The position numbers were made by a program, and so were the translations under genes. A stretch of DNA of 64,000 nucleotides, taken from positions 25,905 to 89,904 of the forward strand of contig JAEUWC010000019.1 in the NCBI GenBank assembly GCA_016786465.1, given 5' to 3'. Shown here piece after piece: positions 3,151 to 29,382 of this stretch. The notes under the pieces were generated by a model. It did not search any database, was not told the origin of the DNA, and saw only the letters and a list, made by a program, of their open reading frames with translations. Within the stretch, counting starts at the first letter, position 1; each line of letters begins with the position of its first letter. The stretch comes from Bdellovibrionales bacterium. Lineage in GTDB: Bacteria > Bdellovibrionota > UBA1018.

Positions 3151-4597
3151 CCTTAAAGTTTCGAACCGGACCTATGATCGCTTTGCCATAGGCCGTATTT
3201 GAACTGACTCGCGCGTAGTAATTTCCCGGTTGAATCACGTAAAGTTCGCTGAAATTGATCAATACGGTCTTGGCAAACATGACCATTTGAAATTTGGGAT
3301 CAGACGCAATTTCAAGAAGGTATGATTTGGTTCGATCCGTGGTGTTCCAAGTGACCAAGGACTTCTTTCCCTTTTCAAGCGTCACGACTTCGCCCTCTTT
3401 GGGTTCCCGAACAACAGGTGGCGGAATCTTGAACTTCACCCGTTGCGTAGGGGATTCAAGTTCGAATCCCGATCGAAGAACGGCGGCGATCTTGTAATCG
3501 TACTGTGAAAGAGGGTCAAATTCTGGAAAAAGGACCGAGGGTTCCGTAACTTGAGTCGAAGTCACGGGTGCACCCTGAGCTGTCGTGATTCGAACTTTGT
3601 AATGCTTCGCAGGAACTTGTTCCCAATGCAGTCGGATTTGCGGAATCCAAGTGGGGTCCAAAAGCTTAAGCGCATTTTCAGCCGCTGCTTGAACGGTAAT
3701 TCGATTTTCACCCACGACCCGTTTTTGTGAATCCAAGACTCGGGTCACGTAATAACCTGGTTTTGCAAATGCCACTGGAACCGTGGCGCTGCCATCGGCA
3801 GCGGATTGGATCGGTTGAAGAACGCCCTTCGCGTTTGCTCCGGTATCGGCAACGATTTCCAGCATCGACCCTGGCAATGCCTTTTCAAGTTTGAAGCGAA
3901 TCTGAGTCACGACTTTTCCTGCTCGAGCCTGAGCCGCAGTCGGCTTTACGCTTCCGGCTTTCGGCGGAACTAGCCACTGAATATTTGATTTAACAAACGG
4001 CAGCACCGACGGGCTAGGTGTTGCAGAAGGTGCGACCTGAACGGGAACGGGCGGGGCTTTGGTGACTGAAAAAGTTTCGATGGGCTTTGGCGGAGCGACC
4101 ACTTTGGGAACAGTGGCTACGGCTTTGAACTTGGTCGACCAATCTTCTTGGGTCTTCTTGATTTTAATTTTTCCATCGCCACCTGAAAGCTGGCTAAAAT
4201 CAAAAGAAGCCAACGCCATTTCTCGGGTCAATTTCAGCAAAGAATCCGGTCCCATGCGGATTTCAAGATCGGGCTTTAGAACAAAGACGCACTCGGACTG
4301 GGGCCCGCTGACAATCGTGTCGTCGATGTAAAGGCTTTGGTTGGGCGTGACGGCGTCATAAACAAAGTTTTCACTGGGTTTTCGTTCGCAGCGGCCCGTA
4401 AATGACGAAACCAGTGCGATCGGTTCGCTCATTAGGGACGCATCATAAGTTCCAAAAATCCAATACCGGATTCGCTGTGACGACGTGGAAAGAAGCAAAA
4501 CCATCAAGGCCAGAAAAAGGGCGACGCCGATTGCGATCTTTTCGTAAAGCGGTACGCCTAATGGATCTTTTTCGGGTGCGACTGCGGCTGTGCTCAA
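3131..4597 (-). CDS. Membrane-anchored FecR-like domain protein with two C-terminal FN3-like repeats; paralogue of 8548..10419
   Basis: N-terminal TM helix IAIGVALFLALMVLLL. Central segment SLYIDDTIVSGPQSECVFVLKPDLEIRMGPDSLLKL resembles FecR (PF04773). The C-terminal ~60-aa units YKVRITT...VKFKI and YLLEIASDPKF...YYARV...FKVKV are shared with the 8548 protein. Confidence 0.45.
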   Translation of the reverse strand: MSTAAVAPEKDPLGVPLYEKIAIGVALFLALMVLLLSTSSQRIRYWIFGTYDASLMSEPIALVSSFTGRCERKPSENFVYDAVTPNQSLYIDDTIVSGPQSECVFVLKPDLEIRMGPDSLLKLTREMALASFDFSQLSGGDGKIKIKKTQEDWSTKFKAVATVPKVVAPPKPIETFSVTKAPPVPVQVAPSATPSPSVLPFVKSNIQWLVPPKAGSVKPTAAQARAGKVVTQIRFKLEKALPGSMLEIVADTGANAKGVLQPIQSAADGSATVPVAFAKPGYYVTRVLDSQKRVVGENRITVQAAAENALKLLDPTWIPQIRLHWEQVPAKHYKVRITTAQGAPVTSTQVTEPSVLFPEFDPLSQYDYKIAAVLRSGFELESPTQRVKFKIPPPVVREPKEGEVVTLEKGKKSLVTWNTTDRTKSYLLEIASDPKFQMVMFAKTVLINFSELYVIQPGNYYARVSSNTAYGKAIIGPVRNFKVKVKSR

Positions 4598-4613: not shown

Positions 4614-6437
4614 TTAATGAAGTTCAGCCATGACCAAGGTAATATCATCATCCAGCGGGCGGGGCCCTGTGTGGTCAAAGACGGCTTGTGTGACTTGCTG
4701 GATCCCAGCGCCAACGTCTGCGCGGCTAGCCGAGGTCAAGACATTGCGCAGGCCTTTTCTTCCAAATTGCTTCAATTCTGCGTTCATCGCTTCGATCAGA
4801 CCGTCGGTATAAAGAAATAGGCGATCACCCGGCTGGTAACTTAGGCCGATCATTTCCCAAGTGCTTGCGTCTAAATTTCTCGATTCGCCCAGGCGATTTC
4901 CACGCGGAGTCAGGCCTTTGATTGCTCCACCGCCGGAAAGTGAAACAAAATATTGGGGGTTGTGACCCGCGGATGAAGCGAAGATCTTCTTGGCTTGGTG
5001 ATCCACGACACACGCAAAGTAAGTCATCATGATGTCGCCTTGTGCAGAATCAAAAATGGCTCGATTGGCCAATTCTAAAACGCGTTTGGGCGAAATCTGG
5101 TCGGGTTGTTCGGTTGCGAATTTTTCAAACATCGAAAACGAAGACCGTGCAGCCGCGGTGATCAGCGCCGAGCTGACCCCGTGACCCGTGGCGTCTGCAA
5201 TTGCAAAAACGGTTTTGCCGGGAAATTCAGCGATTCCCCACCAATCACCACCGCATTCGCTTGCCGAGCGGTAAAAAGATGCGACTTGGCTTTGGGCTGT
5301 TGAAATGAATTCGCGGGGAAGAAGTTTTCCCTGGACCGCCTGTGCAATTTTCAGTTCCTGGTCTAGACGCGATTTTTCGACTAGATCTTGAATCAACGCT
5401 TTGATCTTTTGGCTCATGAAATCGAACGAACGGGCCAGTGCGCCGATTTCATCTTTGGATTCCACAGCGATTTCGATATCAAACTGACCTTCGCTGATCT
5501 GGTGGGTTGCGCGAAACAGATCCCGAATGGGCGAAGTAATTCGGCGAATCAGGAAGGTCCCGGCCAGAATCAAGACTGACATCAGCCCCATTCCGAAAAG
5601 AACGATCTTTTCAACCAAGCTGTACATCGCCTGAACGACCTTGCGGTATTCGGCGCGAACCAAGACGTAAATTCCCAGGTCTGTTTTCGAAAAGCTGGAA
5701 AGGTATTCTTTGTCGCCTGTGACTTTCTTGGAACCGTTCGGGAGCACGCTTTGTTTGGCGGATAAAAAAACTGGGTCTTGGCTAAATGTGGCCTGATTGG
5801 ATCCCAAGATTTGGGTCACATCTGAATCCATCAATGCGTAGCCCTGCGAATCGACAATCGAAAAGCGATTGGTTCCGGCAGACAGTGAATCGAAAAAGGT
5901 TTTCATCGAAACAAAGCCGACCAAAAGCGGTTCCGGACTTCCTTCGCCCAGAAGCAGAACCATTAGGCGGGGTTCTTTTGGGTCTTTCGTGACGTTTCTG
6001 AAAAGGTAGCGCTTGGTCTTTAATTCCGCCATCCACGGCAAAAGGTCGGGTTCGGCATCAAATCCTTTGCCGACTTTAATTGGCGGATTCACCGCTTTGG
6101 GTTTCGGATCTTCTGCAGTCACTTCGAAAAGTTCGAAACCTTCAAGCACGCTTTGATTCTGGAAGACCTGTTCTAAATTCGTTCCCGGAATTTTTGCAGA
6201 TGCAGCGACAGAACGAAGCACGTCCATCGCGCCTTTCAGGCGTCCGTTGATTTCGCGCGCAGAAAAACTAGCTTCTGAAACCTGGTTGTCAAAAACGCTG
6301 ACTTCTTTGTCAGAAACAAATAGGCGACTTGCCGTGAAACCCAGGAAACCAATGGAAACCAAAACGATCGCGATGAGCGCGAGCAGGATCTTTCCGGCCA
6401 CCGTGATTCGAATCGGAGTAGTTGAATCGGGTTTCAC
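4614..6437 (-). CDS. Membrane sensor phosphatase: TM, periplasmic domain, TM, HAMP, then PP2C (SpoIIE/RsbU family) Ser/Thr phosphatase
   Basis: Two TM helices flank a ~250-aa extracytoplasmic domain. The HAMP region is IRDLFRATHQISEGQFD..EIGALARSFDFMSQKI. PPM motifs are intact: GGDWW, IADATGHG, LFLYTDGLIEA, DDDITLVMAELH. Confidence 0.7.
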   Translation of the reverse strand: MKPDSTTPIRITVAGKILLALIAIVLVSIGFLGFTASRLFVSDKEVSVFDNQVSEASFSAREINGRLKGAMDVLRSVAASAKIPGTNLEQVFQNQSVLEGFELFEVTAEDPKPKAVNPPIKVGKGFDAEPDLLPWMAELKTKRYLFRNVTKDPKEPRLMVLLLGEGSPEPLLVGFVSMKTFFDSLSAGTNRFSIVDSQGYALMDSDVTQILGSNQATFSQDPVFLSAKQSVLPNGSKKVTGDKEYLSSFSKTDLGIYVLVRAEYRKVVQAMYSLVEKIVLFGMGLMSVLILAGTFLIRRITSPIRDLFRATHQISEGQFDIEIAVESKDEIGALARSFDFMSQKIKALIQDLVEKSRLDQELKIAQAVQGKLLPREFISTAQSQVASFYRSASECGGDWWGIAEFPGKTVFAIADATGHGVSSALITAAARSSFSMFEKFATEQPDQISPKRVLELANRAIFDSAQGDIMMTYFACVVDHQAKKIFASSAGHNPQYFVSLSGGGAIKGLTPRGNRLGESRNLDASTWEMIGLSYQPGDRLFLYTDGLIEAMNAELKQFGRKGLRNVLTSASRADVGAGIQQVTQAVFDHTGPRPLDDDITLVMAELH

Positions 6438-6486
6438 TGAGTCATAGGATAACCAAACATCCTAAAAACTCAAAACTTTCCAGCGG

Positions 6487-8370
6487 CTAAGCCGCTTTCT
6501 TTTGCGTTGCGCCAGCTGACAGATCTTTGCGCACGAAGTAGGCCTTTTTGGGGATCGCAAGAATCATCACAGTCGCGTCATCGGGAAGCGCGGCTGCGGC
6601 TTCTCCCCAGATTGCTGTGGCCTGTTCGGTCAGTTTTTCTGAAACCCGATCAGCTTGTGGTCCGAAGTGATCCACGGCTTGTGCGATTTCCTGGTACATC
6701 CGGTCTTGCGACAGAATTCTTTCGCCTTTCAGATTTCGGACGCCAAACCATCCAGGCGTGTGGAAAAACATCACATCTTCCGGGAGAAGTTCGAAGTATT
6801 CTTCTTTAAAAGTGTAGTCGGCCGAACGTCCCAGCGGGCCATTTTCACGAACACCCATTCGCATGAATCGAAACGAAAACACTTTTGGCGGTTCTTTGGG
6901 TTTAGGAGGCAGCCGATGGATCCATGGAGCAGGGCCGCTGCAATTCACCATTTGAATCAGGCCCGCGTGAATGTTGAAGATGTAAACGAACGCGTTCATG
7001 GTCGTTTGGCCTTTGCCGGTTGCAAACAACGTCGAGTTGAGTTGGTTCACCAGTCCCTGAAGCGTGGGGTCTTGGCGATTGGCCTTTAGGTTTCCAATAT
7101 ACGAACTTAAAGAACCGTGCATGGCGGCGGTCACCAACGCACCTTGAACACCGCGGTGATTGGTGTGACCGATGACTCCGATGGCGTAGTCACGAACTTG
7201 AAAAGTGGTCCACCAGTCCCCGCCAAATTCAGGGCAAGCCATCATTTTGCCAAAGATTTGAAGATTCTCATGCTTCAAGGCCTCGCGCGGCGTGAACTGT
7301 TCTTGGATCGTGGCAATCGTTTCGCGGTTTTTCTCGGTGGCGACTTTAGCGGCCGTTTGAGCCATCAAGCTATCAATCTTACCGGCCATAGCGTTGAAGG
7401 ATTCCCCAAGCGCTCCGATTTCGTCGTTGCCCATGATGTCAGCGCGAACTCGAAAGCTGAATTCACCCTTTGCGACCTGTGACGTCGCTTCCACCATTTG
7501 CCGAAGTCCTTCGGTCAATCGACGAACGAAGACCAGGGTTAAGCCGATCGCAATGGCTAGGATGCTTCCACCTAGGGTTAACGTGCGCAGAATCAGATCG
7601 CGAATAGCTGAAAACGCTGCATCTCGCGGAATGATTCCGATCACGGTCAGATCGCTGGGCTTGAGTCGCTGATAAGCGGCAATCATTTCGCCAAAATCCG
7701 TGTCCCAAAGCTGGGCTCCGGAATCAAAGTTTCCGTTAAGTACCGGGCGAACCAGTTTTTTGATTTGTCGCTCGGGCAGCATTCCGCGCTTGCCCTTGTA
7801 CTGGCCAAAGACCACGGTTCCCACCGGATCCACCAGATAAAGGTCAAACGAAGTTCCGTTTTCGCCCATTCCAAGATCGGGAAGTGCAAAGGCCACATAG
7901 GCTTTACGTGCAATCACGTTATCGTCGGCTCCGATTTGCTTAGGCGCAAATCCGATGACGACTTCTTGATTTTGGGTGCGGCCCACAAGATAGGGTTCTG
8001 AAACAAAACGTCGAGCCGTCCACCCCAGCGTGTCTAGGGCGCGCCCCTGGATGGCGCCTTCGGATCCAAAAGTCTTGGTCACCGAAAGACTTCCGTCTTC
8101 TGAAATATCCAAAAGCAAAAGACCGCGCAGGCCCAGCTTTTTGGATCGACCCCGAAAAAGGACTTCATTCGGGTCCGCGGTGTTGGGATTTTGACGCTGC
8201 TGAGGTCCAATGGATTGTTGGTGAAAAAGTTGAAGCAGCATCACGATGGATTCAATTTGGCTTTCAACGGACTTGGCGGCGGCTTGAACGCGATTGAAGT
8301 TAAAGTCGACCACGTACGAGCTCTTGTCCTCGACGATATGGGTCGTGCCCGCCAGCATCACGGCGCCCAA
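6487..8370 (-). CDS. Paralogous TM-HAMP-PP2C-like sensor protein with degenerate metal-binding motifs; the true start is probably upstream (about 8445) at a non-canonical CTG
   Basis: The HAMP (LRQMVEATSQVAKGEFS..EIGALGESFNAMAGKI) and PPM fold are recognisable, but DATGHG becomes GVIGHT and YTDG becomes HTPG. Homology to the paralogue's TM1 continues upstream of the first canonical start codon. Confidence 0.6.
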   Translation of the reverse strand: MGAVMLAGTTHIVEDKSSYVVDFNFNRVQAAAKSVESQIESIVMLLQLFHQQSIGPQQRQNPNTADPNEVLFRGRSKKLGLRGLLLLDISEDGSLSVTKTFGSEGAIQGRALDTLGWTARRFVSEPYLVGRTQNQEVVIGFAPKQIGADDNVIARKAYVAFALPDLGMGENGTSFDLYLVDPVGTVVFGQYKGKRGMLPERQIKKLVRPVLNGNFDSGAQLWDTDFGEMIAAYQRLKPSDLTVIGIIPRDAAFSAIRDLILRTLTLGGSILAIAIGLTLVFVRRLTEGLRQMVEATSQVAKGEFSFRVRADIMGNDEIGALGESFNAMAGKIDSLMAQTAAKVATEKNRETIATIQEQFTPREALKHENLQIFGKMMACPEFGGDWWTTFQVRDYAIGVIGHTNHRGVQGALVTAAMHGSLSSYIGNLKANRQDPTLQGLVNQLNSTLFATGKGQTTMNAFVYIFNIHAGLIQMVNCSGPAPWIHRLPPKPKEPPKVFSFRFMRMGVRENGPLGRSADYTFKEEYFELLPEDVMFFHTPGWFGVRNLKGERILSQDRMYQEIAQAVDHFGPQADRVSEKLTEQATAIWGEAAAALPDDATVMILAIPKKAYFVRKDLSAGATQKKAA

Positions 8371-10519: not shown

Positions 10520-11146
10520 ATGGACCTAGAAGGGGTGCGTACTACTTTACTCAGTGCCGTTGGACCGAATGCCTACCCGGTCTTCTTTGGTCTTTTGATC
10601 AGTGGATCGTTGGGAATGCCCGTGAATTCGGACACCCTTTTGATTCTTGGAGCGGTGCTCGCTGCGACTGGTCACCTGGACATTCAAGTCCTGATCATCG
10701 GTGCCCCGATGACGATTCTAGCTGGCGACACGATCAATTTTTTTATCGCTCGAAAACATGGAAAGAAAATCCTGGCGACTCGGTTTTTTCGTCGGTGGGT
10801 TTCGATTGAAAAGCAGGCGCAGATTCAAGACTTCGCCACGCGGCACGGGGCAAAGTGCATTTTCATGACCCGGTTCACGCCACTTCTGCGGGCGGTGACG
10901 TTCTTCATTTCAGGAAGCGTTCAGGTCAAACCGAAAACTTTTTTTGCAATGAACGGACTAGCAACTTGGATTTACGTACCCAGCTTGCTTTTGGCCGTTT
11001 ATTTCACCGCAAGCCACCTTCAAGAATGGGTGGATGGTTATCAAGTTTTTGTCAAAGGGGCACTAACCGCGACCGGCCTAGCCCTTTTCTATTTCCTTGC
11101 AAAATGGGCCAGTCGAAGATGGATGGAGAACGGCAATGCATCTTGA
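10520..11146 (+). CDS. DedA-family (SNARE-associated / VTT domain) inner-membrane protein
   Basis: Multi-pass membrane protein with the DedA signature region ...ILAGDTINFFIARKHGKKIL... and an overall DedA layout. Confidence 0.6.
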   Translation: MDLEGVRTTLLSAVGPNAYPVFFGLLISGSLGMPVNSDTLLILGAVLAATGHLDIQVLIIGAPMTILAGDTINFFIARKHGKKILATRFFRRWVSIEKQAQIQDFATRHGAKCIFMTRFTPLLRAVTFFISGSVQVKPKTFFAMNGLATWIYVPSLLLAVYFTASHLQEWVDGYQVFVKGALTATGLALFYFLAKWASRRWMENGNAS

Positions 11147-11990
11147 TGTTCAGACCAAATTTACTTTAGGCACGCATATCACTGACGAACAGCATGCTTT
11201 TTATCAAAAGTATGGATTTGTGATTTTTAAGAGCGCTTATTCGATGGAAGAAGTGCAAAAGATCCGTGACGGAATCGTTGAAGCCACCGAAACGATTACC
11301 GCCCAAGGTCGCGAATTCATCAATGGGGTTCCCGTGAAGTACGGAATGAACAATCAGGGCAAGATTCTTCCGCAAAGAACGCCATTCATGAACCTTCTCA
11401 ATACCAAGGTCAATGAAATGGTCAGCCACCCGCGCTTGAAGCCGCTTTTGGAATTCATCCCGGGAAGCCGCTTTGGTCTTCAAGAGCGGGACGGCGTGGT
11501 CATCAACCATTATATTGCCGGTGCAAAATCCAAATTCAAGAAACTAGGCTGGCATACAGATTCAATTCGCGATCTTTTTTACTTTGAAAAGGTCCGTCCG
11601 ATGCTGAACGTGGGTCTTCATATTTATCCTTCGTCCCTGGAACAGGGCGGCCTTCGGATCATTCCAGGAACACATAAAGGCGGTCTTCTCAGCCTTTTCT
11701 TCCGCCGCGGATACATTTTTGATAACGCTCCGGATCCGCAGGAATTGATTGTATCGGTTGAACCCGGCGACGTCACGATTCATGACGGACGCATGTGGCA
11801 TCGCGCCGCAGGGCCCACGGTTGCGGTCAAGGGCGAACGAAAGTCGCTTTATTTTCCAATCCTTTGCGGCCCGGTTCGCAAGAAAAGTTCGGAAAGTTCC
11901 GTTCCTTTTTACCTGCGATTCATGTCAGGTCTAAAGCCACCCAAGCCCGAAACTCAAGAAGCGATGTCGAATGTCAACCGTTCAGCATAA
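11136..11990 (+). CDS. Phytanoyl-CoA dioxygenase (PhyH) family Fe(II)/2-oxoglutarate oxygenase
   Basis: GWHTDS...IIPGTHKGG...HDGRMWHRA provides the His-x-Asp...His facial-triad context. The ATG at 11136 is preferred over 11097 because the latter overlaps DedA by 50 nt. Confidence 0.55.
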   Translation: MHLDVQTKFTLGTHITDEQHAFYQKYGFVIFKSAYSMEEVQKIRDGIVEATETITAQGREFINGVPVKYGMNNQGKILPQRTPFMNLLNTKVNEMVSHPRLKPLLEFIPGSRFGLQERDGVVINHYIAGAKSKFKKLGWHTDSIRDLFYFEKVRPMLNVGLHIYPSSLEQGGLRIIPGTHKGGLLSLFFRRGYIFDNAPDPQELIVSVEPGDVTIHDGRMWHRAAGPTVAVKGERKSLYFPILCGPVRKKSSESSVPFYLRFMSGLKPPKPETQEAMSNVNRSA

Positions 11991-12759
11991 GGTCGTTGTC
12001 ACAGGGGCAAGCCAAGGGATCGGCGCCGCTATTGCGGAAGTCTACGCAAAAAAGGGTGCTGAACTTTTTCTGGTTGCGCGGAATGAAGCAAAACTGAAGG
12101 AAGTTGCGGATCGATGCCTTCAAGCGGGTGCATCCAGGGTCGAAGTTTTTGCAGTTGATCTTTCAAACCCGGAAAGTTGGGCTTCCGTTGTCAATCAGGC
12201 TGAAACAAGAAAGTTTCAGGCCGACACTTTGGTGAATAACGCCGGTTATGGCGTGTGGGGAGAATTTGAAAAGCTTTCCCTGGAAGAACAGCTGAAGAAT
12301 ATGCGACTGAACATGGATTGCGTGGTTTCCTTGACCCACTTGTTTCTGCCCATGTTGAGAAAGCACCAAAAATCGTATGTCCTGAATGTCGCTAGCACGA
12401 CGGCTTATCAGGCGATGCCGACTTTCGCTGTCTATGCGGCGTCAAAATCATTTGTATTGTCGTTCACTCGAGCAATTCACCACGAATTGAAGAAATCCGG
12501 GGTCGTCATCAGTTGCCTGGTCCCAGGTGCGACTTCAACTGGGTTCATTTCGCGCGCCGGCCTTGAGCATGCAGCGGAAAAGGCTGAAAAAGTCAGCATG
12601 GAACCCATGGCGGTTGCGAAAATTGGAGTCGAAGGACTTTTGAAAGCGAAACTAGAAATCGTTCCGGGATTTGTGAATGTCCTGTCCAAGGGACTGGTTC
12701 CTTTACTTCCGAAAGGACTAGTTGAATCTGCGGCCGCTTCGATCTACGAAAAGAAGTAG
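11971..12759 (+). CDS. Short-chain dehydrogenase/reductase (SDR) family oxidoreductase
   Basis: VVVTGASQGIGAAIA (TGxxxGIG Rossmann motif), NNAG, and the catalytic YAASK. Confidence 0.8.
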   Translation: MSTVQHKVVVTGASQGIGAAIAEVYAKKGAELFLVARNEAKLKEVADRCLQAGASRVEVFAVDLSNPESWASVVNQAETRKFQADTLVNNAGYGVWGEFEKLSLEEQLKNMRLNMDCVVSLTHLFLPMLRKHQKSYVLNVASTTAYQAMPTFAVYAASKSFVLSFTRAIHHELKKSGVVISCLVPGATSTGFISRAGLEHAAEKAEKVSMEPMAVAKIGVEGLLKAKLEIVPGFVNVLSKGLVPLLPKGLVESAAASIYEKK

Positions 12760-13693
12760 ATTGAAAAAGATCGCGTTTCTTATTTTGTTTCTATTCTCGC
12801 TCAGTCCCTGGGTGCGCTCGGAAGTCGCGCTTGCTACGGGACTGCTTTGGGCGTTTTTATTTCAGAATCCGTTCCCGGCAGATTTGACAAAAAAGTTTCA
12901 GGGCAGACTGCTTCAAGGATCAGTCGTTGGGCTTGGGTTTTCAATTCAGCTGGGGGTTGTTTTATCGACTGGGTCATCCAGTCTGGGAATGACCGCGGGT
13001 TCCATTGCTGGAACCTTTTTGTTGGGGTTCTTTCTTTCGCGTGTGATTCGCGTTCCAAATAAAATGCAGGTCTTGGTGTCGTCTGGAACGGCGATCTGCG
13101 GGGGTAGCGCTATTGCTGCAGTCGGACCGGTTATTTCGGCCGACCGAACTGAAATGTCCATGAGCCTAGCGGTCGTTTTCATTTTAAATTCCGTAGCGCT
13201 TTTGATTTTTCCAAGCCTGGGACATTGGGCGGGATTTAGCCAAGAGCAGTTTGGACTTTGGGCCGCATTGGCAATTCATGACACCAGTTCCGTGGTGGGT
13301 GCCGCATCTAGTTTTGGACCTGTGGCCTTGGGTCATGCAACGACCGTAAAGCTGGTTCGCGCACTTTGGATTTTGCCGCTTTGTTTGGTGATCGGATTTG
13401 GCTTCCAATTTTTAGGTCAAAAGAATCGGTCCGCGAAAGTCCCTTTTCCATGGTTCATTTTCGGGTTCTTAGCTGCAAGCGGGCTGTCCAGTTTCGTTCC
13501 ACAGTGGGAAAGCGTCTGGAAAATGATTTCAACGATTTCTCGGCACGCACTGGTGGGGTCGATCTTTCTGATCGGAGCAGCCATGGACCCTGCGACGATC
13601 AAGAAATCGGGTGCCGCAGTCGTCGGGTATGGAACCATTTTGTGGGTCTTAGTGGGAACGCTTTCGTTTCTTTTCGTAAAGGCGAACGGCTAG
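12722..13693 (+). CDS. YeiH/UPF0324-family putative sulfate-exporter-type membrane protein
   Basis: About 10 TM segments with the conserved ICGGSAIAAVGPVI block. The start is uncertain because the annotated ATG overlaps the SDR gene by 38 nt. Confidence 0.55.
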   Translation: MNLRPLRSTKRSRLKKIAFLILFLFSLSPWVRSEVALATGLLWAFLFQNPFPADLTKKFQGRLLQGSVVGLGFSIQLGVVLSTGSSSLGMTAGSIAGTFLLGFFLSRVIRVPNKMQVLVSSGTAICGGSAIAAVGPVISADRTEMSMSLAVVFILNSVALLIFPSLGHWAGFSQEQFGLWAALAIHDTSSVVGAASSFGPVALGHATTVKLVRALWILPLCLVIGFGFQFLGQKNRSAKVPFPWFIFGFLAASGLSSFVPQWESVWKMISTISRHALVGSIFLIGAAMDPATIKKSGAAVVGYGTILWVLVGTLSFLFVKANG

Positions 13694-14341
13694 GGGAATT
13701 GCCGCAAGGACCAGGCTTAGAATCCATTCCCAAGCCGATGTGGTTTGGGTTCCCGATCCGGGCGCAAGAACGGACCCTCCCCAAGAATAAAAGAAGCTGG
13801 CCGGAAGCATCGCCAAAAAAGTAATGCCCATGAATGGGGCGACCCGCATTTGCGTCATCCCAAACGCCCAATTAATGGACCAAAAAGGGATGAAGGGAAT
13901 GAAGCGCGCTGAAAAAAGATACTTGCCTCCGTGTAGCTTGGCTTCATGAAGGATGGGGTCAATCTGTTTTCCCCATTTTGCCAAAATCCAAGCTTTCAAA
14001 AATCTTCGCGCCAAAAGAAAGGCCAAAGTCGCGCCGGCAGTGCTTCCAAACGCCACCAAAATGGGTCCAATCCATTTACCAAAAAACATCCCAGCCAAAA
14101 GATTCAAAAAAACCGCCGCAGGAAAAACGGCAAGAAAGGAAATGATCGTGTAGCCCAGAACAAATGCAACGGTGGATTCGACCCAGTTGGCTTGCACCCA
14201 GTTTTGCATCACTGAAATTCTTGAAAGCAGGTCGGGAAGGTAAGAAAGATAGGCGACCAATCCAATGGCCAAGAACAAGAAAAATGCCCCCAAAAAAGCG
14301 GCGGGATTCCTTATGTTTCGAATTGGATCCGTTTTTTCCAT
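13649..14341 (-). CDS. TVP38/TMEM64 (DedA-superfamily) membrane protein, last gene of the egt-linked operon
   Basis: Membrane protein with the ...LAGMFFGKWIGPILVAFGSTAGATLAFLLARRFL... signature. Overlaps the upstream ATP-grasp gene end by 31 nt. Confidence 0.55.
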   Translation of the reverse strand: MEKTDPIRNIRNPAAFLGAFFLFLAIGLVAYLSYLPDLLSRISVMQNWVQANWVESTVAFVLGYTIISFLAVFPAAVFLNLLAGMFFGKWIGPILVAFGSTAGATLAFLLARRFLKAWILAKWGKQIDPILHEAKLHGGKYLFSARFIPFIPFWSINWAFGMTQMRVAPFMGITFLAMLPASFFYSWGGSVLAPGSGTQTTSAWEWILSLVLAAIPLAVRLYEKKRKRSH

Positions 14342-15573
14342 TCTTCCTCAAGGGCTTTTCTAAATGCCGGAATTTCAGGTTCTTGATCAAAACTGGCATG
14401 AATCGCTAAGTACCGAAATGAATCGGGGTCTTGGGGCAGGCGCGAAAGCCTTTTGCCTTCTTCATAAAGCGGGTAGCCTTCGATCCAGCCGGGAAGATTA
14501 GAAAGTTCGTCCCAGTCTGATTCCCCCAATCCTTTTTTGACTTTTGCGTCTTGAAACAGACGAAAAACCAGGCTGGACGCAATTTTTTGAAGTTTTTTTG
14601 TGTCTGGAAGTTTTGGGTCTTTTCCACTTGCCAGAGCGACGGCGACGTCAATGCTGTTTACACCCAAGACGGAATCGTAAAGGTCGCTAAACTGGGACGC
14701 GCCACGGGGGTTGACTTCGATGATTTTTAGCTGTTGGGTTTTTGGATCAAAGCGCCACTCGATGTTAAAAAGTGTGGAACGAAGGCCGGATTCAAAGGCT
14801 AGTTTTAATGAGGCTTCCGAAATTTGTTTCTGAACGGCGCGGGGTAGTGAGCTTGGAAATCGAAATTCAGAAAAACTTTCAGTTCCATCGTAAAAATGGG
14901 AATCCGTGATTCCGATGGGGTGCGCCTGGGTTTGGGTGACGTACCCTTCAAAAGTGCATTGGATTCCTGGAACCCAGGATTCGGCGATAAATTCGCGGGC
15001 GGAAACTTTTAAACCCGCATTTGCGGCAAATTCGTGAAAAGGGCGCATTAGGAACCGAAATAAAAAGCGTTCGCGAATCGTCAGCCGTTGGTAAGCTTCC
15101 AAGTCTGCCTGTTGCTCAATTTTCTTGGATCGAACTGAAAGCAAACCCTTCACGGGTTTTGCAAAAAAGGGAAATGCGAAAGCAGACGGCCCGCTACCTT
15201 CAATCATCTTGGAAAACCCCGGTGTAAATTCGGGGCAGATCTTTTTCTGAAGTTCACGGGACAATCTTTTGTGGGACAGTTTCAAAAGATCCGGAAGGCG
15301 CGGCCCGGGAAGCCCAAGACGATCGGCAATATAGGAAGCTGCTAGGCAGCCGGGGTAATCCTGAAAGCTCAAAACGGCAGTGACGGGGGGGTTTAAGCGC
15401 CTGGCTTCTTCGACCCATTCGTCACAAGTCTTGATGATTGATCGGGTCCAGGGGTTGCGTGATCCCTGGAATTCTTTGAATTCAACCTGGGCGTCAGGAT
15501 TCCTTCGGCTCCATTTTTCAAAGCCCTTCTTTTCGAAAATGCTTGGAAAAATGACCCAGATTCGTTCACGCAT
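14311..15573 (-). CDS. ATP-grasp family ligase, translationally coupled to egtD
   Basis: C-terminal ATP-grasp core KIIEVNPRGASQFSDLYDSVLGV. Its start ATG(15573) overlaps the egtD stop as ATGCGTGA. 420 aa. Confidence 0.6.
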   Translation of the reverse strand: MRERIWVIFPSIFEKKGFEKWSRRNPDAQVEFKEFQGSRNPWTRSIIKTCDEWVEEARRLNPPVTAVLSFQDYPGCLAASYIADRLGLPGPRLPDLLKLSHKRLSRELQKKICPEFTPGFSKMIEGSGPSAFAFPFFAKPVKGLLSVRSKKIEQQADLEAYQRLTIRERFLFRFLMRPFHEFAANAGLKVSAREFIAESWVPGIQCTFEGYVTQTQAHPIGITDSHFYDGTESFSEFRFPSSLPRAVQKQISEASLKLAFESGLRSTLFNIEWRFDPKTQQLKIIEVNPRGASQFSDLYDSVLGVNSIDVAVALASGKDPKLPDTKKLQKIASSLVFRLFQDAKVKKGLGESDWDELSNLPGWIEGYPLYEEGKRLSRLPQDPDSFRYLAIHASFDQEPEIPAFRKALEEEWKKRIQFET

Positions 15574-16510
15574 GAAAAAGGACTTCCACGAAATTGTGAT
15601 TTTTATCCGACCAAGACTTCACGAATTTTAGCCCCAGGCGATGAAATCTTTGGATCAGTTCAATTTCGTCAAATTTATGTGAATTCTCGGTGTGAATGGA
15701 TTCACCGCGGCGAAATGAAATTTTGTGCCCTAGCACTTCGATTTCCTGGTCAAAGTCCGAAACCAAGTGCATTTCGATTCGTCGTTCATGGGGATTGAAG
15801 CGTGCCTCGTGCCGAAAGGTTTCGGGTTGAACGCGGGCACCCAATTCTGAACGCATCCGGACCAATAGATTTCGATTGAATTGGGCTGTGATTCCAGCCG
15901 AATCCCAGTAAGCCGGAACTAATTCTTCTTTGGATTTCCAGCGATCTACCCCAAGGATGAAAGCGCCCTTTCCGGGCCTGATAAAATCTAAGGTCCGTTG
16001 AATCAGGGCGTCGATTTCGTTGGCATCTAAGTTTCCCAACGTCGATCCGGGGAAAAAAACCAATCGACGCCGATTTGACCCCAGCTTCTGGTTTAAATCC
16101 TGAAAGGGTTCGTCTTTAAGAAAATCACCTTCAAAAGGATCCACCCAAAGTCGAGGAAGCTTCTTGGCTAAGGAATGAACGCTCATTTCCAAATAAGCTG
16201 GCGAATAATCCATCGGGACGTAAGTCGGAAGTTTCGTCCCGGGCGGAAGCTTCGAAAGAATTTTGGCGATTTTTTCGCCGGATCCCGCACCGTATTCAAC
16301 GATGACATCAAATTCAGACATGTGATGGGCGATCTCAGAACCATGGATTTCAAAAATCTCGTTCTCCGAGCGCGTCAGGTAGTATTCGGGTAGGTCGCAG
16401 ATTTTCTCAAAAAGTGCGGCGCCGTTTTTATCGTACAGGTACTTGGGATGGGTTCGCTTGGGAACGGATTGAAGGCCTTGAAGGATGTCCTGACCAAAAC
16501 TCGGGGTCAT
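15566..16510 (-). CDS. egtD: EgtD-like SAM-dependent L-histidine N-alpha-methyltransferase (ergothioneine pathway)
   Basis: PKYLYDKNGAALFEKICDLPEYYLTRSENEIF and VIVEYGAGSGEKIAKIL match EgtD hallmarks. The chosen start is the internal Met (MTPSFGQ...) whose ATG overlaps the egtB TGA as ATGA. The longer ORF in the track would overlap egtB by 241 nt. Confidence 0.7.
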   Translation of the reverse strand: MTPSFGQDILQGLQSVPKRTHPKYLYDKNGAALFEKICDLPEYYLTRSENEIFEIHGSEIAHHMSEFDVIVEYGAGSGEKIAKILSKLPPGTKLPTYVPMDYSPAYLEMSVHSLAKKLPRLWVDPFEGDFLKDEPFQDLNQKLGSNRRRLVFFPGSTLGNLDANEIDALIQRTLDFIRPGKGAFILGVDRWKSKEELVPAYWDSAGITAQFNRNLLVRMRSELGARVQPETFRHEARFNPHERRIEMHLVSDFDQEIEVLGHKISFRRGESIHTENSHKFDEIELIQRFHRLGLKFVKSWSDKNHNFVEVLFHA

Positions 16511-17823
16511 TTTTGGCCTCGGTCCGTGGGTGCATCGATCGAGCGCGCCAGTCGAAAGCCAGAAAACTGCCACTGTGTCGCTGGTGGAAAAAAGTTTCTG
16601 TAAGTGGGGCGGAAATGGTTTCGGGGTGTGGCAACTGACCCCCCTCGAAGCACCATTTGGTTGATCATAAACTTTCCGTTGTATTCGCCCAGTGCTCCGT
16701 CCTGCGGTTTGAAACCCGGATAAGGAAGGTACGCGCTTTGGGTCCATTCCCAGACCTGTCCCGTGATTTCTAAAGGGCGATCCACATCCGTCGACCCAAC
16801 GGACTGGGGTTCGCTAGGTGCCACGTCTAAGAAGTGCTTTTGCGTGCGCGAAACCTGGTTCGAAGTGGCCGCAAGTTCCCATTCGTTTTCGGTCGGCAAT
16901 CTGGCGCCGTGGGTCCGGCAATAGGCATCCGCTTCGAAATACGAAACGTGGGAAACGGGACTATCTAGCCAAAGGGGATCCGCCATGGATACGGGGCCAT
17001 TCAGGGTGTAAACGCTTTTGTTTTTTAAATCCCAATACATAGGCGCGACAGGTCGTCGATCCCATCCGTCGGATAGCCATTTCCTGGGGTCCGCATAAGC
17101 CTTGGATTTTAGGAACTCCAGGTACTCTCCATTGCGCACCCAAGTGGACGACATTTCAAATGGGGCCACCCAGTTCGAATACCGAGGCGCTTCGTTGTCG
17201 AAGTGGAAGCCTTTTCCCGAAAAACCGGTTTCAATCAGGGCCCCTTCAAAGCGAACCCATTTCCGGGTCAAAGAAGATCTGGGATCAGCGTTCCGCGGGG
17301 AACTGTTTTTGAAGTAGCTGGGCAAAAGGGGCTGTAAACCGAGAATCGACTTTAAGTCGGTAATCAGAAGTTCCTGGTGCTGCATTTCGTGGTGAATTCC
17401 CACCTCGAGATTCGAAAGAATTCTATTTTGGCTTTGAGGATCGAGCTTGGGCAGCTGCTTTCCCAACAAGTGCGCCATTTTTTCGTCGCAGTCTTTTCGG
17501 TACTGCATCACGGATTTCAAATTCGGCCGGGACAGATGAACGCGTCGGTTTCGATCCAGGTGATCGCCTAGGCCCTTGTAGTAAGAATTGAAAAGGTAAC
17601 CAAACTGCGGATGAAAAGCATCGTGCTTGGCTTCAGCCATCAAGATGAAGGTTTCAAAGAACCAAGTGGTGTGGGCCAAGTGCCATTTCAGGGGGCTTGC
17701 TTCTGGAATAGGTGCAACATTGAAGTCGTCTGGGTCCAGGGGTTCGACAATCGCAAGGCTTAGGGCTCGCGTTTTTTGAAAGTCTTCCAGTAATGAAACC
17801 GAAGTGGCGGTTGCTTCTTTCAT
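16507..17823 (-). CDS. egtB: EgtB-like sulfoxide synthase: DinB_2 domain plus FGE-sulfatase (formylglycine-generating-enzyme-like) domain
   Basis: N-terminal WHLAHTTWFFETFIL and C-terminal ...GGSVATPRNHFRPTYRNFFPPATQWQFSGFRLARS are typical of EgtB/OvoA-class iron sulfoxide synthases. Confidence 0.75.
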   Translation of the reverse strand: MKEATATSVSLLEDFQKTRALSLAIVEPLDPDDFNVAPIPEASPLKWHLAHTTWFFETFILMAEAKHDAFHPQFGYLFNSYYKGLGDHLDRNRRVHLSRPNLKSVMQYRKDCDEKMAHLLGKQLPKLDPQSQNRILSNLEVGIHHEMQHQELLITDLKSILGLQPLLPSYFKNSSPRNADPRSSLTRKWVRFEGALIETGFSGKGFHFDNEAPRYSNWVAPFEMSSTWVRNGEYLEFLKSKAYADPRKWLSDGWDRRPVAPMYWDLKNKSVYTLNGPVSMADPLWLDSPVSHVSYFEADAYCRTHGARLPTENEWELAATSNQVSRTQKHFLDVAPSEPQSVGSTDVDRPLEITGQVWEWTQSAYLPYPGFKPQDGALGEYNGKFMINQMVLRGGSVATPRNHFRPTYRNFFPPATQWQFSGFRLARSIDAPTDRGQK

Positions 17824-17848
17824 ATGAATACGTTACGGGGAATTTCAT

Positions 17849-18829
17849 ATGAAAAATTCCCTGGGTCCAATTTCAAATTTCATCAAACACAATTTTCGCC
17901 ATTTCAATGCGGCCGCTTTGGTTGATGCTGCAGAGGGCTATAAAACACACCTGGATTCCGGGGGAAAAATGATGGTGACGCTGGCCGGTGCCATGAGCAC
18001 TGCCGAATTGGGACTGACCTTGGCGGAAATGATTCGCCAGGACAAAGTCCACTTGATTAGCTGTACCGGCGCAAACCTGGAAGAAGACGTCTTCAATTTA
18101 GTTGCGCATAGTCACTATGAACGTGTTCCACACTACCGCCAGCTTTCACCACAAGATGAAGTGAAGCTTTTGGAAAAACACATGAATCGCGTCACTGACA
18201 CCTGTATTCCTGAAGGCGAAGCGATGCGCCGCATGGAAAAGGTCATGTTGGAACTTTGGACGGATGCTGACAAGAAGGGTGAAAGCTACTTCCCGCACGA
18301 ATTTTTCTACAAAGCAATCCTGAGCGGTAAGCTCAAACAATTTTACGAAATCGACCCGAAGGATAGTTGGATGGTTGCGGCTGCGGAAAAAAATCTGCCG
18401 ATGATCGTTCCAGGCTGGGAAGATTCAACGCTAGGCAATATGTACGCTGCAGCATGTATGCGCGGCGATGTGAAACGCGTTCATACGACGCGCACTGGAA
18501 TCGAATACATGACCTCACTTGCGGAATTCTATCAGTCCGTAACGAAGCGCGCTTCTCTTGGGATGTTTCAAATTGGCGGTGGCATTGCCGGCGACTTCCC
18601 AATTTGTGTCGTTCCAATGCTTCACCAGGACATGGGAATTGAAGCACGTCTTTGGGGATACTTTGCGCAAATCAGCGATTCAACCACCAGCTATGGATCC
18701 TATTCAGGCGCTGTTCCGAACGAGAAAATCACCTGGGGTAAGCTCGGCGTCGACACTCCTAAGTTCATTGTCGAATCCGATGCAACCATCGTTGCTCCGC
18801 TGATCTTTTCGTACATCTTGAACCACTAA
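17849..18829 (+). CDS. Deoxyhypusine synthase-like (DHS/homospermidine-synthase fold) protein
   Basis: LISCTGANLEEDVFNLV resembles the DHS TTAGG.EEDL block. About 326 aa, consistent with bacterial DHS-like proteins. Confidence 0.5.
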   Translation: MKNSLGPISNFIKHNFRHFNAAALVDAAEGYKTHLDSGGKMMVTLAGAMSTAELGLTLAEMIRQDKVHLISCTGANLEEDVFNLVAHSHYERVPHYRQLSPQDEVKLLEKHMNRVTDTCIPEGEAMRRMEKVMLELWTDADKKGESYFPHEFFYKAILSGKLKQFYEIDPKDSWMVAAAEKNLPMIVPGWEDSTLGNMYAAACMRGDVKRVHTTRTGIEYMTSLAEFYQSVTKRASLGMFQIGGGIAGDFPICVVPMLHQDMGIEARLWGYFAQISDSTTSYGSYSGAVPNEKITWGKLGVDTPKFIVESDATIVAPLIFSYILNH

Positions 18830-29305: not shown

Positions 29306-29382
29306 TGGTGGCTCGGGGCAGGATCGAACTGCCGACCTCCGCGTTATGAATGCGGCGCTCTAACCATCTGAGCTACCGAGCC
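29306..29382 (-). tRNA. tRNA with anticodon CAT (Met elongator or Ile2/lysidine type), CCA encoded
   Basis: The reverse complement GGCTCGGTAGCTCAGATGGTTAGAGCGCCGCATTCATAACGCGGAGGTCGGCAGTTCGATCCTGCCCCGAGCCACCA folds as a cloverleaf with a 7-bp acceptor stem, GCTC/GAGC D-stem, loop TTCATAA, a perfect T-arm GGCAG-TTCGATC-CTGCC and a G1-C72 pair (not initiator-like). Confidence 0.85.

Follow-up and report, generated by a model that had tools for sequence, protein, structure and literature searches.

An uncharacterised family of ATP-grasp ligases recurs beside ergothioneine and selenoneine biosynthesis genes (egt and sen) in five separate lineages. One of these is the subject of this work: a four-gene operon, egtB-egtD-ATP-grasp-VTT, of a deep-branching Bdellovibrionales metagenome-assembled genome (MAG). 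The operon lies in a stretch of 64,000 nucleotides (NCBI GenBank assembly GCA_016786465.1, contig JAEUWC010000019.1, positions 25,905 to 89,904), referred to here as the window. The egtBD core appears to be an ordinary type II pair, and what is new is a recurrent, apparently accessory ligase of an uncharacterised kind on a known pathway. The association of the ligase family with egt/sen genes is statistically solid; most family members are found elsewhere, and the role of the ligase in the pathway is offered as a proposal.

A translationally coupled operon with a two-enzyme ergothioneine core

The four genes are successive open reading frames (ORFs) of the same direction, all on the minus strand and located where an earlier note on this DNA, made from the sequence alone, had placed them (Table 1). 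That note described an ATGA overlap between egtB and egtD and an overlap of ATGCGTGA between egtD and the ATP-grasp gene, and both can be read directly, at 16510-16507 and 15573-15566. Its phrase "translationally fused" does not hold: because the four ORFs are separate and have overlapping ends, the genes are translationally coupled, not fused. The further overlap that it reported, between the ATP-grasp and VTT genes, depends on where VTT translation begins. If ATG 14341 is used, which has GAGGAAGA immediately 5' of it, the ATP-grasp stop codon (TAA, 14313-14311) falls within the VTT ORF and the overlap of 31 nt stands; if the alternative in-frame TTG 14293 is the start, this overlap is gone and the other two junctions are unaffected. 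For egtD, the longest ORF starts at 16747. Since the profile match begins only at residue 85 of that ORF, the true start is the ATGA-coupled one, whose product is identical to the deposited NCBI protein (P0231, 314 aa). We show that the four genes form one co-translated minus-strand operon. In a promoter and terminator scan, promoter-like sites numbered 2 (expected, 4.7), and the terminator-like hairpins were many but weak.

Table 1. Genes and gene junctions of the operon, in window positions
Feature	Position	Strand	Remark
egtB, type II (cysteine-type) hercynine sulfoxide synthase (predicted)	16507..17823	-	438 aa
egtD, L-histidine N-alpha-trimethyltransferase (predicted)	15566..16510	-	314 aa counted from ATGA-coupled start
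ATP-grasp carboxylate-amine ligase (predicted), uncharacterised L-amino-acid-ligase-like family	14311..15573	-	420 aa
TVP38/TMEM64-type VTT-domain membrane protein	13649..14341	-	230 aa
Overlap of egtB stop and egtD start, ATGA	16507..16510	-	direct sequence reading
Overlap of egtD stop and ATP-grasp start, ATGCGTGA	15566..15573	-	direct sequence reading; 8 nt
Overlap of ATP-grasp 3' end and VTT 5' end, 31 nt	14311..14341	-	holds if VTT start is ATG 14341

Curated profiles recovered both enzymes of the ergothioneine core, as the earlier note had named them. EgtB scored 470 bits against TIGR03440 (cut-off, 360) and contains the Pfam domains DinB_2 (PF12867) and FGE-sulfatase (PF03781); its score against the NCBIfam SenA model, 312 bits, is below the cut-off of 420. 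EgtD scored 310.1 bits against TIGR03438 (cut-off, 290.9) and 306 bits against Methyltransf_33 (PF10017). The subtyping of EgtB that the note had called for gave a clear outcome. Among solved structures, its best relative is EgtB from Chloracidobacterium thermophilum (CthEgtB; 6o6l/6qki), at 351-353 bits (6o6l, 352.9), compared with 103.7 bits for the type I enzyme MthEgtB of M. thermoresistibile (4x8b), 92 for EgtB-IV, and 68 for SenA. His51, His145, and His149 of the window protein align with His62, His153, and His157 of CthEgtB, which we take to be iron ligands. Tyr81 and Tyr82, within an FNSYY motif at residues 78-82, align with Tyr93 and Tyr94, which are essential in CthEgtB, an enzyme that prefers cysteine (PMC10903977). 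Judged by these matches, the window EgtB is a Chloracidobacterium-like, cysteine-type (type II) enzyme, and its preference for free cysteine is predicted from its similarity to CthEgtB. Such a type II enzyme, in which both tyrosines and the aligned histidines (putative iron ligands) are retained, would not need a supplier of gamma-Glu-Cys.

We thus show that a predicted oxygen-dependent two-enzyme ergothioneine core, EgtD and a cysteine-type EgtB, is present and coupled. Profile scans of the operon proteins detected no EgtA (GCS2 glutamate-cysteine ligase), EgtC, or EgtE, and none of the four genes encodes the C-S lyase step. SenA and SenB had no tblastn match anywhere in the window; SenC was not among the probes.

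When the ATP-grasp, VTT, and EgtD proteins were searched against 5.8 billion clustered proteins (EgtB was not so searched), no close relative of the operon was found, none exceeding 47% identity. The best identities were 41% for the ATP-grasp protein, 41% for the VTT protein, and 47% for EgtD. A metagenome scan with the window ATP-grasp protein likewise returned no near relative. These low identities point to a deep, poorly sampled lineage.

The ATP-grasp protein belongs to a family of its own

The third gene matches PF13535 (ATP-grasp_4) with 34 bits (cut-off, 27), and besides this only CPSase_L_D2 was found. The EVNPRGASQF core pointed out in the earlier note occupies residues 286-295. No curated NCBIfam equivalog matched the protein, nor did a GCS2/EgtA, EgtC (amidohydrolase), or EgtE (pyridoxal phosphate-dependent lyase) profile, so that the note's description of an ATP-grasp enzyme distinct from EgtA, EgtC, and EgtE is borne out.

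An AlphaFold (AF2) model of the protein had a mean predicted local distance difference test (pLDDT) score of 92.9 and a predicted TM (pTM) score of 0.93. With this model, the top Foldseek match was BL00235 (3vot; TM score, 0.79; E = 3.5e-20), followed by YwfE/BacD (3vmm/3wnz) and RizA (4wd3). All 50 matches listed were ATP-grasp enzymes, and PurD, PurK, and the biotin carboxylases ranked below the L-amino-acid ligases. The family profile also matched 3vot (5.5e-13 over positions 72-293), and BacD was found by sequence as well. The L-amino-acid ligases therefore resemble the window protein in three-domain architecture, in the ATP-grasp_4 domain, and as its best structural matches (TM scores, 0.65-0.79); they differ from it in sequence (just 13-17% identity), in the invariant motifs that its family has for itself (QHKxxxR, YPGTxSFxRFxYPS, and EVNPRxxxQF), and in context, since the operon is no antibiotic or dipeptide cluster. 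As to the sub-family assignment that the note had proposed as a check, the protein falls in an uncharacterised family that is closest in fold to the L-amino-acid ligases BL00235, BacD, and RizA.

A word-indexed search of the 5.8 billion proteins returned 56 ATP-grasp homologues, all at most 38% identical to the window protein. Among 1.84 billion representatives, scanned exhaustively with HMMER, 945 matches reached E ≤ 1e-3 and 208 reached E ≤ 1e-30; the closest was 41% identical. Across 44 homologues (approximately 30% identity), 23 residues are invariant. They include K139, E198, E272, E286, N288, and R290, which are present in the window protein and to which we assign, by analogy with the superfamily and as an assumption, roles in the nucleotide/Mg site and in catalysis. 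The window protein is very probably an active enzyme, and the pattern of conservation suggests that the whole family probably performs one reaction type. The model predicts a three-domain ATP-grasp fold with an intact active site, L-amino-acid-ligase-like (Lal group) by fold and profile; such a protein would work like a carboxylate-amine (dipeptide-type) ligase, although it is not placed in any characterised ligase family.

A few family members have unusual architectures. Among 150 representatives listed, fusions are rare (3). P0097 joins an N-terminal membrane region and a Sulfatase (LtaS-like) domain to the ATP-grasp domain, and P0198 has a membrane region like that of P0097 ahead of its ATP-grasp domain. 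P0084 is a tandem double ATP-grasp protein, and P0096 carries an unannotated C-terminal extension of approximately 500 aa. A Burkholderiales contig (L057) holds two family paralogues 2 kb apart (3188-4462, plus strand, and 6278-7549, minus strand); a TauE/SafE-type gene stands beside each copy, one between the copies and the other just past the second.

The ATP-grasp family recurs beside egt and sen genes

We surveyed 169 loci with a family member, using tblastn and profile probes, and grouped them into 61 lineages by clustering at 60% identity. In 5 of the 61 lineages, egtB, egtD, senA, or senB lies within 10 kb of the family member. The number expected by chance is approximately 0.2-0.4 lineages, with 0.37 under a generous null that places two separate egt/sen loci per 4 Mb in every genome (743 kb surveyed). 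The corresponding Poisson P is approximately 4e-5 to 2e-6 (approximately 4e-5 under the generous null). Co-occurrence with ergothioneine-type genes, which the earlier note had suggested examining, thus exceeds chance, and the association is real but partial. In a neighbor-joining tree, the five egt/sen-linked lineages sit on separate branches; only shallow clades are resolved, and the deep branches, including that of the window, are not.

The window itself (egtB-egtD, ATP-grasp, and VTT) is the first of these lineages. The second is an Aquabacterium-type Burkholderiales clade of 18 loci, in which a sen cluster is combined with the ATP-grasp gene. Its order is senC (SelD-like), senB, senA (NF041186, 508 bits), egtD, a TIGR04553 selenate-type ABC transporter, an SMR protein (quaternary-ammonium efflux), a class I methyltransferase, an optional EgtB-II, the ATP-grasp gene, and a YHS (seleno)protein. 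This EgtB-II (548 bits) is 41-42% identical to the window EgtB and stands directly upstream of the ATP-grasp gene in 12 of the 18 loci. In the third lineage (L087, L138, and L140), the ATP-grasp gene is convergent with an operon of senA (528 bits), egtD, thioredoxin, and dsbD, and senB (TIGR04348, 442 bits) lies on the far side of that operon; L138 is rearranged relative to L087, and its egtD directly abuts the ATP-grasp gene. The fourth, the L001 clade, has senB, senA, an ArsP permease, and the ATP-grasp gene, and the fifth (L074, Thermoanaerobaculia) has the ATP-grasp gene, an OpuAC-permease fusion, and egtD. Family members also occur in sen clusters that lack EgtB-II (L043, L049, L087, and L001). 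What such sen-only clusters have in common with the window is hercynine chemistry, not the sulfur donor.

The Aquabacterium-type clusters vary in composition. SenA and a type II EgtB are found together in one cluster in L044 (606-11775) and also in L033, L082, and L116, and the clusters of L043 and L049 contain senC without EgtB-II. Ordinary egtB-egtD operons, sampled through relatives of EgtD, have no ATP-grasp gene: the Oligoflexus locus L168 consists of egtBD alone, and in L169 egtBD is followed by an OpuAC-type ABC transporter.

Methyltransferase and VTT genes are stable partners of the family

A class I S-adenosylmethionine methyltransferase gene stands immediately upstream of the ATP-grasp gene in L015, L023, L047, L084, L085, L153, L154, and L049/L133. 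In L033 and L044, such a gene precedes EgtB-II and ATP-grasp, and L086 has a different methyltransferase upstream of the ATP-grasp gene. In the window, this position is held by the methyltransferase EgtD.

The fourth gene of the operon matches PF09335 (VTT_dom) with 79 bits (cut-off, 33.9) and is named TVP38/TMEM64 in the source annotation, in agreement with the TVP38/DedA-family membrane protein of the earlier note; no relative exceeds 41% identity to it. In 7 of 63 family lineages, VTT-domain genes are found no more than 10 kb away from the ATP-grasp gene. In L170 (6522-12035), overlapping genes encode a flavoprotein (glutathione/mycothione-reductase-like), a VTT protein, TIGR04283 (260 bits; cut-off, 182), TIGR04282 (172 bits; cut-off, 134), ATP-grasp, and DUF3047 proteins, and L031 and L053 have the same arrangement. 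In L077, a fused VTT-reductase gene is directly 5' of the ATP-grasp gene. The stable pairs are thus methyltransferase followed by ATP-grasp, and ATP-grasp with VTT, and the variable partners appear to be clusters whose small-molecule products would contain sulfur, selenium, or (going by NCBIfam names) arsenic. Transporters showed no enrichment beside the family: 12.8% of immediate neighbours had at least 3 crude transmembrane segments, compared with a background of 10.5%.

Two further observations concern VTT genes near the family. VTT and reductase are fused in one protein of approximately 720-800 aa in L049, L077, and L031. In L172 (8914-12466), which has no egt genes, the ATP-grasp gene is flanked by a flavin mononucleotide (FMN)-reductase-like gene, a small DinB_2/mycothiol-S-transferase-like gene, and a convergent VTT gene.

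Proposed role of the ligase and alternative explanations

In the reading that we favour, EgtD would convert histidine to hercynine, and the type II EgtB would join free cysteine and hercynine to give hercynyl-cysteine sulfoxide; the ATP-grasp and VTT proteins would be an accessory module of the operon. The ATP-grasp enzyme would use ATP to phosphorylate a carboxylate, from which the acyl group would then be transferred to an amine. More specifically, its carboxylate substrate may be the methylated histidine betaine that is made upstream (hercynine or ergothioneine in the window, and selenoneine in the sen clusters), to which it would ligate an amine or amino acid. The product may then be handled at the membrane by the VTT protein, and elsewhere by SMR, OpuAC-ABC, or EamA proteins. 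A methylated histidine betaine would be the simplest common denominator because the sen-only clusters have only hercynine chemistry in common with the window and because the ATP-grasp gene follows a methyltransferase gene. We tentatively regard the enzyme as an accessory carboxylate-amine ligase tied to histidine-betaine (sulfur/selenium) metabolism and not as a donor supplier, which seems possible. The narrower proposal, that it carries out an undescribed tailoring step in which ergothioneine, hercynine, or selenoneine is amidated at its carboxylate by an amino acid or polyamine, is a speculative one in which we place little confidence. We are equally guarded about its corollary, a new low-molecular-weight thiol or selenol conjugate moved across the membrane by VTT, SMR, or ABC proteins.

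Several observations weigh against a tie to histidine betaines. No egt/sen gene lies within 10 kb in 56 of the 61 lineages, and most members have unrelated-looking contexts, among them alanyl-tRNA synthetase, 2-oxoacid:ferredoxin oxidoreductase (identified by eye), TauE (by Pfam), and peptidase S15 (by Pfam record). L145, a relative at 74% identity inside the L001 clade, lacks sen genes in its 4.7 kb upstream. The family is present in TM6/Babeliales and in DPANN-type archaeal MAGs, which are unlikely ergothioneine producers, and the high conservation of its residues outside the ATP site suggests a single family-wide reaction, hard to square with a substrate confined to egt/sen genomes. The databases searched contain no close relative in which the operon might be conserved, and we know of no ergothioneine amide from bacteria. 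The ATP-grasp protein, with or without the VTT protein, could be a general enzyme, such as an ordinary dipeptide ligase, that entered the operon through gene shuffling and shares at most a stress regulon with egtBD. The egt/sen-free majority of lineages, the many contexts that resemble housekeeping regions, the reduced-genome TM6 and DPANN MAGs, and the ordinary operons of L168 and L169 would all fit this explanation. We nevertheless consider it unlikely, in that the egt/sen association recurs on five family branches, far above expectation and including a rearrangement within a clade (L087 compared with L138), and the 8-nt overlap with egtD speaks for co-expression. Should the ATP-grasp protein be irrelevant to the pathway, the locus would be a plain type II egtBD operon of a deep-branching lineage.

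Two other explanations give the ligase a different substrate. It may be an amino-acid (e.g., cysteine) ligase that makes a thiol dipeptide or another low-molecular-weight thiol, which EgtB would use as sulfur donor or the pathway as reductant or redox partner. Dipeptide-forming ligases share the fold of the ATP-grasp protein, and EgtB-II directly adjoins the ATP-grasp gene in two unrelated lineages, the window and the Aquabacterium type. Sulfur and redox genes are also found as neighbours: the glutathione/mycothione-reductase-like flavoprotein with VTT (L170, L077, and L031), DsbD and thioredoxin (L087), the DinB_2/mycothiol-S-transferase-like gene (L172), TauE, and a redoxin (L171). A set of glycosyltransferase, ligase, disulfide reductase, and DinB transferase, moreover, resembles the logic of the mycothiol and bacillithiol pathways. 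The window gene, however, has no accompanying glycosyltransferase or reductase, type II EgtB takes free cysteine (PMC10903977), and the sen clusters without EgtB-II use a selenosugar as donor (bioRxiv 10.1101/2022.04.13.486033), which together make a thiol ligase improbable in our view. The predicted cysteine preference and the sen clusters also weaken the idea in the earlier note that the enzyme supplies EgtB with an alternative sulfur-donor dipeptide. Its other idea, a putative derivative of ergothioneine or hercynine, fits the gene contexts better. We regard it as very unlikely that the ATP-grasp and VTT proteins form an envelope-modifying module, in which an amino acid or amine is added to a lipid or envelope polymer that the DedA-like protein flips, with co-transcription of egtBD being incidental. 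Such a module would account for the ATP-grasp/VTT overlap in the window, the recurrence of VTT genes near the family, and the membrane regions of P0097 and P0198 together with the Sulfatase/LtaS-type domain of the former; the DedA family includes lipid-carrier transporters, and both VTT proteins of the window have weak UptA matches. It leaves the egt/sen association unexplained, however, and the fusions that it draws on are the rare ones noted above, and the operon contains no lipid-biosynthesis gene.

A separate candidate, replacement of EgtA by the ATP-grasp protein, was tried and rejected on the type II nature of EgtB and the presence of the family in sen clusters whose donor is a selenosugar.

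Comparison with known systems

The window resembles the two-gene type II pathway (CthEgtB and EgtD) in that EgtB-II is followed by EgtD, an order also seen in L168 and L169. It differs in the ATP-grasp and VTT genes coupled translationally downstream, and in that no database sequence exceeds 47% identity to the proteins searched. With the mycobacterial egtABCDE system it shares EgtD and an EgtB homologue, and the same end product would be expected; unlike that system, the operon has no EgtA, EgtC, or EgtE, and its EgtB is of type II and not the gamma-Glu-Cys-using type I. The senABC selenoneine cluster of Variovorax paradoxus offers another parallel, since ATP-grasp homologues stand at the edge of complete senC-senB-senA clusters with egtD and a presumed transporter of selenate, whereas the window has no SenA or SenB and an EgtB that scores below the SenA cut-off (312 < 420). 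Co-localised genes, egtD and one for a putative selenate transporter, were noted for sen clusters by Kayrouz et al. (bioRxiv 10.1101/2022.04.13.486033); neither "grasp" nor "ligase" occurs in the main text of that preprint. The loci with TIGR04282/TIGR04283 "arsenosugar biosynthesis glycosyltransferase" genes (L170, L031, and L053) share the ATP-grasp and VTT pair with the window, which lacks TIGR04282/04283, DUF3047, and the reductase.

In the open-access papers and preprints searched, we found no report that links an ATP-grasp protein to ergothioneine or selenoneine clusters, an absence that is no proof. The open-access literature searched likewise held nothing relevant on TVP38 or DedA with ergothioneine or selenoneine, or on the arsenosugar protein ArsS. 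Two to five known enzymes are taken to make up the whole of the ergothioneine and selenoneine pathways. A ligase family that recurs inside these clusters in at least five distant lineages would imply a missing accessory step or an unknown antioxidant derivative (amide conjugates or a companion thiol). A role found for it would also open the way to the functions of a family of approximately 200 ATP-grasp sequence clusters and of its VTT, disulfide-reductase, TIGR04282/04283, and DUF3047 neighbours.

Polyamine-related genes and other features of the window

Glutathionylspermidine/trypanothione synthetase is a ligase that uses ATP to join an amine, in amide linkage, to a thiol antioxidant at its carboxylate. 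The logic is that of our favoured reading of the window ATP-grasp protein, a pure analogy in which no relationship of sequence or fold is claimed. A deoxyhypusine/homospermidine-synthase (DHS)-like gene (17849-18829, plus strand) is divergent from egtB; it matches PF01916 with 148 bits and falls well short of every NCBIfam cut-off. The two start codons are only 25 bp apart (17824-17848), and for this reason both divergent promoters must lie inside the neighbour's coding sequence. Elsewhere, in two Burkholderiales loci (L026, 7700-8650, and L065, 2231-3394), genes for the putrescine-making enzymes N-carbamoylputrescine amidase (CN_hydrolase) and agmatine deiminase (PAD_porph) are directly upstream of the ATP-grasp gene. 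The DHS-like gene had no match in any other ATP-grasp locus and the other egt/sen loci show no polyamine link, so that we keep the polyamine connection as a lead only.

On the other side of the operon, an overlapping series of plus-strand genes encodes a DedA-type VTT protein (10520-11146), a PhyH-like dioxygenase (11097-11990), a short-chain dehydrogenase/reductase (11971-12759), and a YeiH-family membrane protein (12722-13693). This series and the egt operon are convergent, with a 45-bp overlap of their 3' ends (13649-13693). The sole Rfam match at the gathering threshold in the window is a tRNA gene (29309-29382, minus strand). The DedA-type VTT protein of the plus-strand series is distantly related to the operon VTT protein (BLASTP E = 1e-5).

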